Positions 5,728 to 44,393 of a DNA stretch of 64,000 nt are shown here, piece by piece. This DNA is from Patescibacteria group bacterium (GTDB lineage: Bacteria; Patescibacteriota; Patescibacteriia; UBA11705; DATKZF01). The notes beneath the pieces were generated by a model. The model saw only the letters and a program-made list of their open reading frames with translations. It was not told the origin of the DNA and searched no databases. Each line of letters opens with the position of its first letter. The first letter of the stretch is position 1. A program made the position numbers and the translations under genes. The stretch spans positions 12,331-76,330 of the forward strand of contig JBMORT010000008.1 of assembly GCA_049319825.1 (NCBI GenBank), given 5' to 3'.

Positions 5728-5750
5728 ACTGAACGGAGAGGCCGTTCAGT
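5728..5750 (-). terminator. rho-independent terminator for the minus-strand small ORF (hairpin ctgaacgg-agag-ccgttcag followed by T7 on the minus strand)
   Basis: Perfect 8-bp stem with 4-nt loop, with the A7 run on + strand equal to a U-run on - strand. Confidence 0.45.
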
Positions 5751-5778
5751 TGACATCGCACATTGTGCTTCGTCATAT

Positions 5779-5958
5779 CTACCGACTACCGAAGATAAAG
5801 CCTCCTGCCACGAAGCCGATCAACCCGGAGAAAACCGAATAGATCATCTTGAGCAAGGATGTGTCCACGCGGGTCGTTTCGAGAAACGCGTAGTCTAAGC
5901 TGATCATCGCAGTGATCGTTATCGCGACAAAGGCGATAAAGAACAACAGCTTGGACAT
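5779..5958 (-). CDS. small membrane protein (59 aa, 2 predicted TM: MSKLLFFIAFVAITITAMISLDYAFLETTRVDTSLLKMIYSVFSGLIGFVAGGFIFGSR)
   Basis: Below the 60-aa ORF-track cutoff; preceded by AAAGGAG RBS; followed by the terminator hairpin at 5750-5728. Confidence 0.35.
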   Translation of the reverse strand: MSKLLFFIAFVAITITAMISLDYAFLETTRVDTSLLKMIYSVFSGLIGFVAGGFIFGSR

Positions 5959-6207: not shown

Positions 6208-6948
6208 ATGCCAATTGAAAAAACACCCGGCGGAGAGCGCTGGGGCAGTCGGGATTTTTTCCGCGGCCGCGGCTTTGTCAAGGGCCAGGACAAGTTGGTT
6301 AATAATGAAACCGATCTGCTTAAAGTCGTGGAGACAAAAAAAACAGGCAAGGGGCTGGTCGCAAAAGCGCCGATTAAAGAGGGCGCGAGGATATTCGGTA
6401 TTCAGGGATCGGAAGAAGAGATTGTTCAAGAGCGTGAACGGAAGTTTTCTAAATCCAAAGCCGATCGTTCGCCCTTGTTGAATCTTTCAGGCAATCCGGA
6501 TTTATATTTGCCAAATTCAATCTGCGTCGGACAAAAAACAGCTCCGGACGGTCGCGTTATAAATACCATGCTTGATCCAGATGATGATAACCCGCTTCGG
6601 TTTATTAACCATTCCTGCGATCCCAACGCGAGGAGAATGGGCCCGTTCGCGATCGGCGCTTTTCGAGATATCGCGGTCGGAGAGCCGATCACCATTGACT
6701 ATTCGATTTTGGAGGTCAATCCGGAATGGCGGATGAAGTGCCTATGCGGCTCGCCCGATTGCCGCGGCGAGATTCGCAGCGTTCAATATTTGACGCCAAA
6801 GCAAATTGAGCCGTCATGGAAGGATTTGCCGGGTTTTATCAAGCGAATCTACATGCAATCGGCTGAAAAGCGGTTTTTAAGCCAAAAAGACAAAGAAGTA
6901 TTGAATAAATTGAAGGAGAATATGGAAAGCTTTGGCTTTGGCGATTGA
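6208..6948 (+). CDS. SET-domain protein (putative protein-lysine methyltransferase)
   Basis: RFINHSCDPNA (NHSCxPN), ITIDYS, and a C-terminal post-SET Cys cluster KCLCGSPDCRG. Confidence 0.65.
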   Translation: MPIEKTPGGERWGSRDFFRGRGFVKGQDKLVNNETDLLKVVETKKTGKGLVAKAPIKEGARIFGIQGSEEEIVQERERKFSKSKADRSPLLNLSGNPDLYLPNSICVGQKTAPDGRVINTMLDPDDDNPLRFINHSCDPNARRMGPFAIGAFRDIAVGEPITIDYSILEVNPEWRMKCLCGSPDCRGEIRSVQYLTPKQIEPSWKDLPGFIKRIYMQSAEKRFLSQKDKEVLNKLKENMESFGFGD

Positions 6949-6985: not shown

Positions 6986-7189
6986 ATGGCTAAACTATTT
7001 TTAATGCGCGAAGGCGAGAGGGTTCCCCAACCCCCAGAGGAACTCCAAAAACTAAGGAAAGAAGCACAAGCTCAAGTTGAGAAGGGAGAGAACCAAAAGG
7101 AATTAGACAAAATTTTAGAATTCGTTGATTTTAAATTACTACAAGAAATGCTTAGAAAATTTTTAATATCCCGCTCGATAAAGATTTAA
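6986..7189 (+). CDS. hypothetical small protein (67 aa)
   Basis: ORF only. Confidence 0.2.
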   Translation: MAKLFLMREGERVPQPPEELQKLRKEAQAQVEKGENQKELDKILEFVDFKLLQEMLRKFLISRSIKI

Positions 7190-7218
7190 ATTTTGTAGGG
7201 AAGGGGTCTGTAGCAGAT

Positions 7219-7680
7219 ATGCCCAGAAATCTTTTTGGTCAATATGATCCGGTGGCAAATAACCTTAAAATCAGTTACATGGCCGCCAAGGAATATACTG
7301 ATTCTTTTGTTGAAGAGATTAATGATTCGGCCGCAGAGGATGACTCAAGAGAAAAAATTACCCCTCAAGAACGCGAACAAATACTTGCGCTATTTACATT
7401 AAAAACGCTCATCCATGAAGAAATCCATGCGATGACCGAAATCAAGTTAGTTAAGAAACCGCAAGCTCCTTTAGAAGAACATACCGATTCGTTTGATAAG
7501 CGAGATGGTACTTGCGTCACAGATGTTGAAATTGGTTTTGCGAATTTACGTGAAGGTATCTTCAAACAGAGCTTCATGGTTCTTGAGGAAGGGTTTACCG
7601 AGCGTATGGCACAAGATGTATTTCCAAAATATCTCAAATCTCTGGGTATTTTTTTTCCAAAAAAGTTCGTGATCTTGTGA
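7219..7680 (+). CDS. hypothetical protein with HExxH motif (possible small zinc-metallopeptidase-like protein)
   Basis: LIHEEIHAMTE contains HExxH. Confidence 0.35.
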   Translation: MPRNLFGQYDPVANNLKISYMAAKEYTDSFVEEINDSAAEDDSREKITPQEREQILALFTLKTLIHEEIHAMTEIKLVKKPQAPLEEHTDSFDKRDGTCVTDVEIGFANLREGIFKQSFMVLEEGFTERMAQDVFPKYLKSLGIFFPKKFVIL

Positions 7681-12382: not shown

Positions 12383-12493
12383 CAGGGCGCGGGGCGGGCA
12401 TACGCCCGCGTAGGGACAGAATATCTGTCCCTACCGCAGGCAGAGGTAAAGCCGAATTCGGATTCGGCTTTACCTCTGCCTGGCCGCGCCCTG
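12383..12493. repeat. GC-rich cloverleaf palindromic element, copy 1 (outer 10-bp stem plus three perfect hairpins of 6, 11 and 21 bp), followed by a T6 run
   Basis: cagggcgcgg...ccgcgccctg outer stem; hairpins gcgggc-atac-gcccgc, gtagggacaga-ata-tctgtccctac and caggcagaggtaaagccgaat-tcgg-attcggctttacctctgcctg. Confidence 0.85.
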
Positions 12494-38515: not shown

Positions 38516-38873
38516 GGCCTCCTCCTCATCCAGACGGTATTTTATCTTATTAAAAAAATATTAAAATGTCAATTATTAACAGTTAGTTTTGGTAAATGAT
38601 ATATTTGTGGTAGAATTAATACAACATGGAGCAATGTTATGAGGCAGTAGGCAAGAGGCGGCCTGCCTGACCAGTAGTACGTTACTATGGACTATTGCCC
38701 CTTTAACGACGCTCAAGTCAGGCTTCTGCTTATTGCCTTGCGTATCTCGCGTCTCGCCCATCGCCTTTCTTATACCAATCAACAATTAACCTCGTAACGT
38801 CGTAACCTCATAACCTCATAACCTCTTAATTTTTTTTCCAGCTAACGACATATTTAAAATAAAATTTATCTTT

Positions 38874-39560: not shown

Positions 39561-39717
39561 ATTTGTTAAAACCGGCGCAAATTATTGTGCCGGTTTTTAT
39601 ATTTTGTGTTATAATAGAAACGTCATGGATCATGGAGCGATTCTAATGTGTTTGTAAATTAGAAATATTTGTAATTATTCGTAATAAAAATAAATAATAT
39701 TCGTAATTTGCTATTTT

Positions 39718-40536: not shown

Positions 40537-40679
40537 TCATTAAAAAATTTCAAAAAACCGGTTTCCTCTGCGATGCCGGTTTTTTATACACAATTTTTTG
40601 AAAATTAATTACAATTATCAGTATTTATGGTATAATTTATTTGTAATTATTCGTAATAAAATAAATATTTGTAATTATA

Positions 40680-41344: not shown

Positions 41345-42277
41345 ATGAATCACAAAATAATTTTAGGAATTGCCGGGGGAATAGTGATTGCCGCGCTGGG
41401 GTTTGGAGTTTATTTGGCTGTCACCAATTTTTCGATTATTAAAAATATTGACTTGGGTCAAGACGCGGATGAGGGAAAAATCGAAAATTTCGACGAGTGC
41501 GCGGCCGCGGGCAATCCGGTGATGGAAAGCTATCCGCGCCAGTGCCGCACGGCCGACGGCCGGCTTTTTGTGGAAGAGATTGACGAGGATGAGTGGGAAT
41601 TTGATTCTGAGTGGGGAGTCGATTACGAGGTCCGTGGCTGCGATGAGGAAAAGCTTCGCGATCCGCTGGCGCAAGAAAAAAAAGACAGAATAGCCGACAT
41701 GACCATTGACGGCAATTATGTAAATTTCACGCATTATTTGAATTATGTTTGCTGCGCTGATATTGAAGTGGAAATAATGGATACAGTCGTCGAAGATGAT
41801 AAAACGACAATTAAATTGCTTGAATCAAATACCGGTGAAATGTGCCGCTGCGTCTGCGATTATGAAGTCGACATCACTCTCGGCTATCTTGATCCCTTCA
41901 AATATACAGTTGAAATGTACGGCGTCGAATTCGAAGGCGAACAAGAGCCGCAGCTTCTCTGGTCAAGAGATTTTCAAATCATTGAATCAGAAGAAGACGG
42001 AGCCGGCATCGGCCTGGCGAATCCGGCTTCAGCGTATTGCCAGGATTGGGGCGGCACTGTGGATATTCGGCATTTTATCGACGGGGATAAGGGATTCTGC
42101 CTGTTTGAGGACGGTTCTGAATGCGAAGAATGGGCATTTTATCGTGATGAATGCTGGGACGGAGAGGTTTTTTGCAAAGATTTATGCGGTGACGGCCAGT
42201 GCCGGGAAATAGTCTGTGAAGCGGTCGGGTGTCCGTGCTCGGAGACAGCCGAATCGTGCCCTGCAGATTGCCAATAA
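41345..42277 (+). CDS. membrane-anchored acidic Cys-rich protein with a DUF333-like (putative hemolysin) C-terminal domain
   Basis: TM ILGIAGGIVIAALGFGVYLAV; ANPASAYCQDWGGTVDI...GFCLFEDGSECEEWAFYRDEC matches the NPAS-YC / C-F-DGS-C-EW-F-R-C pattern of DUF333; 23 Cys. Confidence 0.5.
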   Translation: MNHKIILGIAGGIVIAALGFGVYLAVTNFSIIKNIDLGQDADEGKIENFDECAAAGNPVMESYPRQCRTADGRLFVEEIDEDEWEFDSEWGVDYEVRGCDEEKLRDPLAQEKKDRIADMTIDGNYVNFTHYLNYVCCADIEVEIMDTVVEDDKTTIKLLESNTGEMCRCVCDYEVDITLGYLDPFKYTVEMYGVEFEGEQEPQLLWSRDFQIIESEEDGAGIGLANPASAYCQDWGGTVDIRHFIDGDKGFCLFEDGSECEEWAFYRDECWDGEVFCKDLCGDGQCREIVCEAVGCPCSETAESCPADCQ

Positions 42278-42622
42278 CGTAAAATAACGCAAAATAACGC
42301 CAAAATAACGCAACATAACGCCAAAATAACGCAATATAACGCAACATAACGCCAAAATAACGCAATATAACGCAACATAACGCCAATATAACGCAACATA
42401 ACGCAAAATAACGCAATATAACGCAACATAACGCAAAATAACGCCAAAATAACGCAATATAACGCCAAAATAACGCAATATAACGCAACATAACGCCAAA
42501 ATAACGCAATATAACGCAACATAACGCCAATATAACGCAAAATAACGCAATATAACGCAACATAACGCAAAATAACGCCAAAATAACGCAATATAACGCC
42601 AACATAACGCATATAACGCCCG
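42278..42622. repeat. degenerate minisatellite, ~33 units of 10/11 bp (AAAATAACGCA / AAAATAACGCCA / ATATAACGCAAC), starting at the stop codon of the preceding gene
   Basis: Read directly; mean period ~10.5 bp. Confidence 0.9.
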
Positions 42623-42642
42623 GGTAAAACCGGGTTTTGTTT
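42619..42642 (+). terminator. rho-independent terminator (cccgg-gtaaaac-ccggg + ttttgtttc) at the end of the minisatellite
   Basis: Read directly. Confidence 0.4.
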
Positions 42643-42644
42643 CT

Positions 42645-42763
42645 GGCCGATTCACGGCCGGCGCACGCGCCGGCCGCAGAGACGCGCCGCGGCGCGTCTC
42701 TGCACCGGACATGGTAAAACCGAATTCGAATTCGGTTTTACCATGTCCGGCCATGAATCGGCC
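42645..42763. repeat. GC-rich cloverleaf palindromic element, copy 3 (diverged sequence, same architecture: outer stem ggccgattca/tgaatcggcc plus three perfect hairpins, the last a 24-bp palindrome with two GAATTC sites)
   Basis: cggccggcgc-ac-gcgccggccg; cagagacgcgccgcggcgcgtctctg; ccggacatggtaaaaccgaattcgaattcggttttaccatgtccgg; shares the ggtaaaRccgaattcg core with copies 1 and 2. Confidence 0.8.
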
Positions 42764-42842
42764 CTGTTTATAAATCGCTTGAAAATATTTTTTAAACACG
42801 ATATAATCTTGTCAGATTTTTGAAATTAATACATATAAATTT

Positions 42843-44393
42843 ATGGGGATTTGGCGAAATCTTTTTTTATTTACACGGAGAATTGTCGGTTATTTTCCAT
42901 TGAAAATTATGCCGAATTTTAAAAGCGTACGCAGTTGGATAATAATTGTTTTAATCGCCGGCGCTTTCATCGTGCCTGGGGTTTTTGCGCAAGAAAACGG
43001 ACTGATTCCATTGCCGGCCGACTCAGCGCATCCTGCGACCGAAACCGTGGCAGCGGAAAATGCTTCTGACCATTCTTCCGAAGCCGAGGAAGGACATGGC
43101 GCCGCGGCCGCGCAAACCTTCATGTGGATCGCCATTATTTTAGTCGCGGCCAAGCTGTCCAGCCTGGTCGAGCGATTCGGCCAGCCATCGGTATTGGGCG
43201 AATTGGTGATTGGCGTTGTTTTGGGTAATTTGGTTCTATTGGGTATTAATTTTTTCGAGCCGTTGAAAATGAATGAAACCATAACTTTCTTGGCGGAATT
43301 GGGTGTGGTTATTTTATTATTCCAAATCGGGCTTGAGTCCAACATCAAGGAGATGAAAAGAGTGGGAGTCAAAGCTTTTATTGTCGCCTGCGTTGGCGTG
43401 GTTGCTCCTTTTGTGCTGGGAACATACGTGGTGGGACCGATGCTTTTACCCGGTTTGTCCAGTAACGCCTATTTGTTTTTAGGCGCCGCTTTAACCGCCA
43501 CTTCGGTCGGCATCACCGCGAGAGTTTTTCAGGATTTGGGCAAATTAAAAATTCCGGAAGCGCAAATTATTTTAGGCGCGGCAGTTATTGACGACGTTCT
43601 GGGTTTGATTATCCTGGCCGTCGTCTCCGCCATCGTCACCATCGGCGCCGTGAGTATCGGTGCGATCAGCATTATTGTCGCCAAGGCGATTCTGTTTTTG
43701 GTCGGCGCCATAGTGGTCGGTCAATTGATCGCCAAATGGCTGGGCCGGGCTTTTGCCAAGATTCAGACTGGCGTGGGTATGAAATTTACCTTAGCCATCT
43801 GTTTTGGCCTGCTTTTTGCCTTTTTGGCGCAAAAAATCGGCTTGGCGCCGATTGTCGGCGCGTTCGCGGCCGGTCTGGTGCTCGATCCCGTTCATTTTAA
43901 ATATTTTAAAGATCCGAAAGTGGTTAGTGACATGAAAAAAGCGGTTGAAGGCGCGCCGATTGAAATTCAGGAGAAAGTCGAAGAAGCCATCGAGCCGCAC
44001 GCGCACCGGCATATTGAGGATTTGGTGGCGCCGGTAGGCATGTTTTTAATACCGATATTTTTTGTCATGACGGGCATGGGAGTAAAGCTGGAAACTCTAT
44101 TTAACGTAAAAATATTGCTGGTGGCGCTCGGCATCACCGTTGTCGCTTTTATCGGCAAATACATTACCGGATTTGTCGCCGGAAAGGGAGTGAATAAATC
44201 TATTATCGGATTTGGCATGGTGCCGCGCGGAGAGGTCGGTCTGATTTTCGCGTCAATCGGCAAAGCCTTGGGAGTGGTGTCTGATTCTGTCTATTCGGTA
44301 ATCGTTATAATGGTAATATTAACAACACTGCTGACGCCGCCAATTTTGACTGTTTTATTGAAAAGACATGATCAAAAAGTAAAAATCGCTTGA
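42843..44393 (+). CDS. monovalent cation:proton antiporter (CPA2/Kef-type) with an N-terminal signal/extension
   Basis: ~12 TM segments; ELGVVILLFQIGLES and GAALTATSVGITARVF motifs typical of Na+/H+-K+/H+ exchangers. Confidence 0.7.
   Translation: MGIWRNLFLFTRRIVGYFPLKIMPNFKSVRSWIIIVLIAGAFIVPGVFAQENGLIPLPADSAHPATETVAAENASDHSSEAEEGHGAAAAQTFMWIAIILVAAKLSSLVERFGQPSVLGELVIGVVLGNLVLLGINFFEPLKMNETITFLAELGVVILLFQIGLESNIKEMKRVGVKAFIVACVGVVAPFVLGTYVVGPMLLPGLSSNAYLFLGAALTATSVGITARVFQDLGKLKIPEAQIILGAAVIDDVLGLIILAVVSAIVTIGAVSIGAISIIVAKAILFLVGAIVVGQLIAKWLGRAFAKIQTGVGMKFTLAICFGLLFAFLAQKIGLAPIVGAFAAGLVLDPVHFKYFKDPKVVSDMKKAVEGAPIEIQEKVEEAIEPHAHRHIEDLVAPVGMFLIPIFFVMTGMGVKLETLFNVKILLVALGITVVAFIGKYITGFVAGKGVNKSIIGFGMVPRGEVGLIFASIGKALGVVSDSVYSVIVIMVILTTLLTPPILTVLLKRHDQKVKIA

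Follow-up and report, generated by a model that had tools for sequence, protein, structure and literature searches.

A 33-unit ATAACGC tandem array between a DUF333-domain gene and its terminator in a Patescibacteria genome

The window analysed was a 64-kb stretch of DNA from the genome of an ultra-small bacterium of the Patescibacteria (G000; 1.16 Mb, ten contigs, 99% complete). It contains a tandem array located between a DUF333-domain gene, the last in a run of four small anchored-protein genes, and a gene of the Na+/H+ exchanger family; a radical-SAM gene is a further neighbour. Coordinates are listed in Table 1. The DUF333 protein (310 amino acids) has an N-terminal membrane anchor and a Cys-rich C-terminus. 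The TAA stop codon of its gene (42275–42277) falls within the first, degenerate repeat unit (AATAACGT). A hairpin returned by the terminator scan at 42618–42635, followed by a T-rich tail, closes the array. Both ends agree with a preliminary description of this DNA, in which the array had been placed between the stop codon and a terminator hairpin. In the RNA fold, the 5′ arm was formed by the last repeat unit (AUAA.GC) and CCGG, the loop was GUAAAA and the 3′ arm led into the U-rich tail; the entire last unit was part of the extended 5′ arm. The terminator is followed by a cloverleaf palindrome and then by a sigma-70-like promoter, which is conserved in a genome of the sister genus (G002) and in a close relative of the latter (L164). 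Direct TATTCGTAAT pairs were observed at window positions 39666–39685 and 40637–40657, 30–40 nt upstream of two adjoining genes for small membrane-anchored proteins; G001, another genome of the family, has a related TTACGAA-type repeat 3′ of its DUF333 orthologue (L011).

Table 1. Positions of the array, its blocks and the surrounding features (window coordinates unless a contig is given).
Feature	Coordinates	Strand	Basis and remarks
DUF333-domain gene	41345–42277	+	ORF list; Pfam PF03891, E = 7.9e-17
Tandem array	42273–42619	+	Tandem Repeats Finder; period 10, 33.8 copies, 85% matches, score 450
Higher-order block 1	42315–42458	+	14 units, unit string AtcAtcTcatcaAt
Higher-order block 2	42459–42592	+	13 units; block 1 minus one 10-bp unit; Tandem Repeats Finder period 134
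Intrinsic terminator	42613–42645	+	Terminator scan; RNA fold
GC-rich nested perfect-palindrome ('cloverleaf') element	42645–42763		Sequence; separate dispersed repeat, 119 bp
Sigma-70-like promoter	42779–42807	+	TTGAAA-17 nt-TATAAT, 11/12; promoter of the downstream gene
Na+/H+ exchanger family gene	42843–44393	+	Pfam PF00999, E = 2.3e-60
ATAACGC decamer arms of the PF05635 cassette between hypC and hypD	G000:C9:123634-123669 and 124095-124123		Locus L215/L228

Two copies of the cloverleaf element follow terminators preceded by ATAACGC units, namely the copy in Table 1 and one at G000:C6:345320-345420 (locus L214). In the latter, the palindrome also has GCGTT units beyond it, an arrangement that would result from its insertion into a longer hairpin. 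A related palindrome occurs in G001 at the orthologous ClpB-like site (L219). A consistent link between ATAACGC arrays and the cloverleaf was rejected, the copies at window positions 12383 and 13366 having no adjoining array.

The array is composed of one degenerate unit and 33 exact copies of the heptamer ATAACGC (within 42284–42619), each with a spacer of 3–4 nt behind it; just two more copies occur in the window. A minisatellite of about 33 units of 10/11 bp had been described, and this was borne out by Tandem Repeats Finder and by the count of exact cores. The units are 10 nt (21 units), 11 nt (11 units) or 9 nt (one unit) long, with a mean spacing of 10.28 bp. All 33 cores are identical; variation is confined to the spacers, which are AAA, AAT or AAC with or without a leading C. 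The base composition is 52% A, 25% C, 10% G and 13% T. Shuffles gave 9.8 ± 3.2 ATAACGC matches over both strands; 37 were observed, of which 33 lie inside 336 bp. The array is longer than expected by chance for its genome (a backwards control pattern gave 0 genome hits), and its cores follow each other head to tail, 9–11 bp apart.

Tandem Repeats Finder also reported higher-order periods of 31 and 134. A unit string was written in which lower-case letters stand for 10-nt units, capitals for 11-nt units with an extra C, the letters a, t and c for the last spacer base, x for the lone 9-nt unit and # for the final unit, which enters the terminator. The array then reads aAcAtcAtcTcatcaAtAtcAtcTatcaAtCx#. 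Exact internal repeats reach 82 bp (copies at 42315 and 42459), and the triplet Atc recurs inside both blocks. Since the 13- and 14-unit blocks are identical except for one unit, block 2 marks a recent block duplication and the last growth step of the array is young. Block duplication of this kind is a signature of slippage or unequal recombination.

The assembly was checked against the Logan assembly of the public run SRR32167788, the one further assembly found by exact-protein look-ups. Both flanks are identical to the window, with 0 mismatches over 3550 and 4673 bp, and the Logan contigs end 57 bp into the array and at the centre of the downstream palindrome. Presence and position of the array are corroborated by these matching flanks; its length is 33 units as assembled. 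A misjoin is ruled out by the gene order, which is common to the relatives. It is highly improbable that the repeat is real and its length or unit order reflects a wrong path through the assembly graph. Such an error would be favoured by the two near-identical blocks with their 82-bp exact repeat, and the k=31 Logan assembly was unable to span the array. Against it, the independent assembly reproduces the first 57 bp between identical flanks, relatives with a short array at the same place have matching gene order, and graph errors usually collapse repeats and do not expand them. The blocks also differ by one unit and are therefore resolvable by words longer than 82 bases.

The comparison with related genomes suggested in the preliminary description gave shorter or different repeats at the orthologous site. 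In the sister genus (G002/L184) the order is DUF333 stop codon, five units, terminator and exchanger, and the gene order around the exchanger matches that of the window (loci L010, L184 and L164). L164 has four decayed units (ATAAAGC, ATAAAAT, ATAATGC) with no CG and a 23-nt (two-unit) gap relative to the G002 array. Identity between L164 and G002 is 74% over aligned columns of the array, or 48% with gaps, compared with 78–80% for the neighbouring coding and promoter DNA. G001 carries a different short repeat at this site. Across species, unit counts are 33 in the window, five in G002/L184 and four in L164. A metagenome scan with the exchanger protein yielded 47 loci, none from the genus of the array, and among these the DUF333–array–exchanger layout was common only to G002/L184 and L164. 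The same gaps at the ClpB-like and GAPDH loci hold different repeats in the three genera, although the encoded proteins are 75–85% identical. As such 3′ tails and leaders at other orthologous loci differ in their repeats from genus to genus, these tracts turn over fast, and the core is not strongly constrained in every lineage.

Short ATAACGC arrays (2–5 units) were found ahead of other terminators in three genera. G000 has five units at the end of the typA gene and three at the end of a ClpB-like gene, in both cases before the terminator; the typA orthologue of G001 ends in two and a gene at G002:C2:6374 in three or four, likewise before the terminator. A three-unit array at G000:C6:345275 is followed by the cloverleaf element. 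In every fold of the short arrays the AACGC(C) of the last unit forms the 5′ arm of the hairpin, with the A-rich part opposite the U tract. The periods of these sister arrays are 9–11; their spacers vary in sequence and length and their cores mostly hold, a constancy that is biased by the use of the core ATAACGC as the search pattern. The motif occurs at eight or more other loci in three genera and is in sense orientation at eight of nine loci. Among 61 relatives, coding chance hits aside, an ATAACGC pair at 10–11-bp spacing was confined to the three genomes that belong to this family.

TTTAACGYN nonamers, which are related to ATAACGC, adjoin the start codon in three genes, one of them GAPDH. 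A composite leader is common to at least four unrelated genes, GAPDH and an RdgB-like gene among them, and consists of (TAACCTCN)n octamers, CCATTTTTCC, (TTTAACGYN)n nonamers and ATG. These leaders are located at window positions 38780–38873, G000:C6:71060-71175, L211 (G000:C6:318728-318838) and G000:C9:251213-251300 (- strand). The GAPDH leader of G002 keeps the composite layout with TTTAACT units; G001 has AGTTTCC heptamers instead.

A pattern scan of genome contigs yielded no information on this lineage; its hits were for the most part isolated chance matches, perfect arrays of unrelated kind and a satellite-like repeat. The perfect decamer TTGATAACGC was present in 16 copies in L051 (~7077–7230; Bdellovibrionales MAG) and six copies in L078 (~5728–5790; Psychrobacter sp.), both unrelated bacteria. 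A degenerate 10-bp CACATAACGC satellite makes up whole low-coverage contigs of 1–2 kb (L022, L028, L044, L047, L073 and about 15 more). These are binned into three hydrothermal MAGs (Anaerolineae, Archaeoglobaceae and Campylobacteraceae) and, because of this spread, are probably mis-binned satellite DNA of one organism.

G000 contains about 320 tandem arrays of period 5–12, among them 152 heptamers, 45 nonamers and 26 decamers. By a crude gene map, 57% of the arrays lie in the ~10% of the genome that is intergenic. In co-directional spacers the sense strand of the arrays is rich in A (A > T in 84 arrays versus 48). The array described here (347 bp) is the largest in G000 and 2.4 times as long as the next short-period array. 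Tandem duplication of the 5′ arm was found at eight of 689 terminator hairpins, against 3–6 in offset controls, and duplication of this arm is unsupported as a general rule in G000. A steady rise of cumulative GC skew over the whole window places the array away from an origin or terminus; iterons of a replication origin or terminus were rejected, the skew having no turn in the window. Pfam searches of the neighbours gave no DNA-binding gene near the array. An adjacent binder or partition ATPase gene, or an origin location, as would mark iterons or a centromere, was not found. A TIGR or CRISPR-like array was rejected in view of the lack of variable spacers and hairpin repeats.

Eleven copies of the PF05635 gene (23S rRNA intervening-sequence protein) were identified in G000, none of them on contig C8. 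All eight intact copies inspected are flanked by inverted arrays of short tandem units, with a motif particular to each copy (further cassette loci: L226, L227 and L229–L233). The ATAACGC unit itself serves as cassette arms between hypC and hypD, with GCGTTATTT three times upstream and five ATAACGC-type units downstream. The orthologous cassette of G002 (L237) has TAACRC decamer arms; G001 has no cassette at this position. The main array has neither an inverted partner array nor an enclosed PF05635 gene. No GCGTTAT run is present on the + strand of the window, single copies being located at 6554 and 54238.

Curvature was modelled with Bolshoy–Trifonov wedge parameters. The ratio of end-to-end to contour length was 0.53, among the most curved 0.8% of 778 genome windows of the same length. 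The mean local bend, 16.5° per 21 bp, was ordinary, being equalled or exceeded in 40% of genome windows. Fourier analysis of AA dinucleotides gave a peak at 10.3 bp. An A4 tract occurs in 13 of the 33 units, whereas phased A-tract DNA is defined by an A-tract of at least 4 bp free of TpA in nearly every turn; the wedge model predicts no bend for units with AAT or AAC, and pure 10/11 alternation of A-tract units would give a ratio of 0.33. A helical period of about 10.5 bp, with strongly curved DNA or a one-faced protein-binding array as its consequence, had been proposed in the preliminary description. The period is indeed close to one turn, at a mean of 10.28 and not 10.5 bp. Curvature is predicted by the wedge model as a global property only, and 'strongly curved' overstates it, the local bend being average. 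The one-faced binding array found no supporting evidence, given the neighbouring genes and the sister periods. Helical phasing is not a property of the repeat family, since the sister arrays have periods of 9–11 and most G000 repeats have a period of 7.

On the RNA level, the sense strand of the array was less structured than 100 of 100 shuffles (z = +3.15), and the array matched no Rfam family. Rho (PF07497) gave no match in the 99%-complete G000, compared with matches in nine of 14 control genomes, and neither Hfq nor CsrA (PF17209, PF02599) was matched there. A Rho-dependent termination (rut) site was rejected on the first of these results and an Hfq or CsrA sponge on the second. Given that Rho, Hfq and CsrA are all without a Pfam match, intrinsic terminators may be the sole termination route in G000. 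No promoter-like site of at least 10/12 lies inside the array; the best match was 9/12, at its left edge, and an internal promoter was rejected. It had also been suggested that loss of the stop codon would make array length alter a C-terminal extension. This carries little weight, as reading on in frame would meet another stop after 72 nt, and in the other two frames after 5–10 nt.

None of the tests performed indicates a dedicated function for the ATAACGC array. We consider it probable that a simple repeat has expanded here by slippage from a seed in the A-rich 5′ arm of the terminator and is carried as an unstructured 3′ mRNA tail, with bent DNA as a side effect. The ancestral state would have been a short run of a decamer, the decamer itself being the A-rich 5′ arm of the intrinsic terminator of the DUF333 gene. 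This run may have grown by replication slippage or unequal recombination into a long simple sequence repeat or minisatellite, duplication of the 13/14-unit block being the last step. Judging from its position, the array would be transcribed as an A/C-rich, essentially unstructured 3′ untranslated tail of ~345 nt on the DUF333 operon mRNA. It would then have no dedicated function, and the global bend would be a by-product of the near-helical period. Copy number is probably unstable. Growth by slippage is supported by the location of the array between stop codon and terminator, by the 2–5 copies ahead of terminators elsewhere and by the five units at the sister-genus site. It is further favoured by the abundance of intergenic short-period arrays in G000, the fast turnover of such tracts, the near-identical internal blocks, the restriction of the spaced motif pair to three genomes, and the negative results for Rfam, antisense Pfam matches, internal promoters and a skew turn. 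Neutrality is countered by the invariant cores, with all differences in the spacer, which would be the pattern of a recognised motif, although the core-based search biases this pattern. Selection could also account for the 10.28-bp mean period and for a modelled global curvature in the top 1%, and occurrence of the motif at many loci in three genera, nearly always in sense orientation, speaks against neutral slippage. Arm seeding as a habit is not borne out by the duplication counts for terminator 5′ arms given above. It is mainly because the core is invariant, multi-locus and strand-polar that some weight is left to readings in which the array is a DNA platform, an RNA decoy or an IVS-type arm.

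A role of the array as an RNA-level element is unlikely. An unstructured 3′ UTR with 33 AUAACGC motifs would bind or titrate an RNA-binding protein, or pair in trans with GCGUUAU runs, for example those in the upstream arm of the hypC–hypD cassette or in terminator 3′ arms, and so act as a sponge or stability element. The poor folding of the sense RNA, the prevailing sense orientation of the motif, the nonamers next to start codons and the three GCGTTATTT copies of the upstream cassette arm at G000:C9:124095 are in keeping with this, and binding of S1, Csp or CsrA has been proposed for intergenic TAACTGA repeats (PMC4679880). In common with protein-sponge RNAs of the CsrB/RsmZ or CrcZ type, the tail would present many single-stranded motifs (33), provided that it is transcribed as its position suggests; the genome gave no match for a cognate CsrA or Hfq. 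Neither Rho nor an Rfam family was matched, L164 and G001 conserve neither the copy number nor the core, and the binder is wholly hypothetical. A further reading, which we regard as very unlikely, is that ATAACGC is a recognised word read on RNA or DNA by a lineage-specific factor, at terminator shoulders and cassette arms alike, the most concrete candidate being the PF05635 four-helix-bundle protein of the hypC–hypD cassette; the 33-unit DUF333 mRNA tail would then be a high-capacity decoy or assembly platform, or an antisense sponge for GCGUUAU-bearing arms. If this were true, an abundant 23S-IVS protein family would gain its first ligand. An antisense repeat protein can practically be discounted. 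Three open frames of 157–205 amino acids run through the array, the reverse strand of the unit being stop-free in all frames. Simultaneous opening of three frames is, however, expected from the composition of GCGTTATNNN repeats; no frame has a Pfam match, that strand has no promoter-like site inside or just downstream of the array, and the frames overlap the 3′ end of the DUF333 gene and the palindrome. Antisense coding was rejected on the Pfam result and on composition.

Action at the DNA level is unlikely. With cores and A-tracts on one face, the array would be bent or wrapped and offer a platform to a DNA-binding protein, either nucleoid-type or sequence-specific, and might insulate the end of the operon or affect the exchanger promoter 160 bp downstream. 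The mean period and AA peak, the low modelled ratio, the invariant core with variable spacers and the strong promoter-like site downstream would fit such a platform. They are opposed by the scarcity of A4 tracts, the average local bending, the other periods of the sister arrays and of G000 arrays (mostly 7 bp), the decay of the core in L164 and the lack of an adjacent DNA-binding gene. The terminator and the 119-bp palindrome also intervene between array and promoter, and a bend accumulates in any tandem repeat with a period of ~10.3. It is similarly improbable that the array is an overgrown, one-sided arm of an IVS-type hairpin, made by the process that builds the inverted PF05635 arms, with the terminator as the small hairpin that remains. 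The inverted short-repeat arrays around all eight inspected intact PF05635 genes argue for this origin, as do the ATAACGC arms of the hypC–hypD copy and their TAACRC counterparts in G002, the GCGTT units beyond the inserted palindrome at G000:C6:345275 and the variable-number tandem heptamers published for the Coxiella IVS stem (PMC4990558). The main array, however, has no inverted partner and no PF05635 gene near it, and the proposal concerns origin only; plain slippage would still be compatible with it as the growth mechanism.

Taken as a slippage-expanded repeat, the array is an example of the fast rebuilding of Patescibacteria gene gaps by short tandem repeats. It calls for caution in assembly and annotation of Patescibacteria genomes, where contig breaks and spurious antisense ORFs are to be expected at such arrays. 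It also provides a natural test piece for the effect of a long unstructured tail ahead of a terminator on termination and mRNA life without Rho. If the core is a recognised motif, its binder would connect intergenic short repeats, IVS-type cassettes and four-helix-bundle proteins.

Curved DNA with phased A-tracts is known from kinetoplast-type bends. The array resembles it in having a period near the helical repeat, so that small bends add up and marked global curvature is predicted, and differs in having A4 in only ~40% of its units, no A5–6, TpA steps elsewhere and an ordinary predicted bend per turn. Type II plasmid centromeres, such as parC of R1 and pSK41, consist of 10–11-bp direct repeats to which ParR binds. 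The array likewise has numerous direct repeats spaced by roughly one helical turn; in contrast, it is chromosomal, lies in a 3′ untranslated region and has no adjacent parR/parM-like genes and no known binder.

The ORF-bearing 23S rRNA IVS of Coxiella burnetii has hairpin arms made of inverted tandem short units in variable number (PMC4990558). The ATAACGC decamer arms around the hypC–hypD PF05635 gene in G000 are alike; the main array is about ten times longer and stands without an inverted partner or enclosed gene. Intergenic direct repeats of the heptamer TAACTGA have been described in Beggiatoaceae, Cyanobacteria and Bacteroidetes (MacGregor, 2015; PMC4679880). As with ATAACGC, a single short motif is found at numerous intergenic sites, with a prevailing orientation relative to the genes and in arrays of up to tens of copies; the genes are without Shine–Dalgarno sites and a binder is only proposed (PMC4679880). 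The TAACTGA repeats have a strict 7-nt unit and lie mainly just upstream of start codons (PMC4679880), whereas the array has a 10/11-nt unit and forms a 3′ tail ahead of a terminator, only its nonamer relatives preceding start codons. The remaining comparison is with the long simple sequence repeats (LSSRs) of prokaryotes, with units of 5–11 nt (Mrazek et al., 2007, as summarised in PMC4679880). Relative to the LSSRs of that summary, the array is distinguished by its 10/11-nt unit with an invariant 7-nt core and variable spacer, its contact with a stop codon, its overlap with a terminator arm and its higher-order blocks. It shares with them, as they are summarised there, a head-to-tail unit of at most 11 nt, an extent far beyond chance, a non-coding location and an array-rich genome dominated by heptamers.
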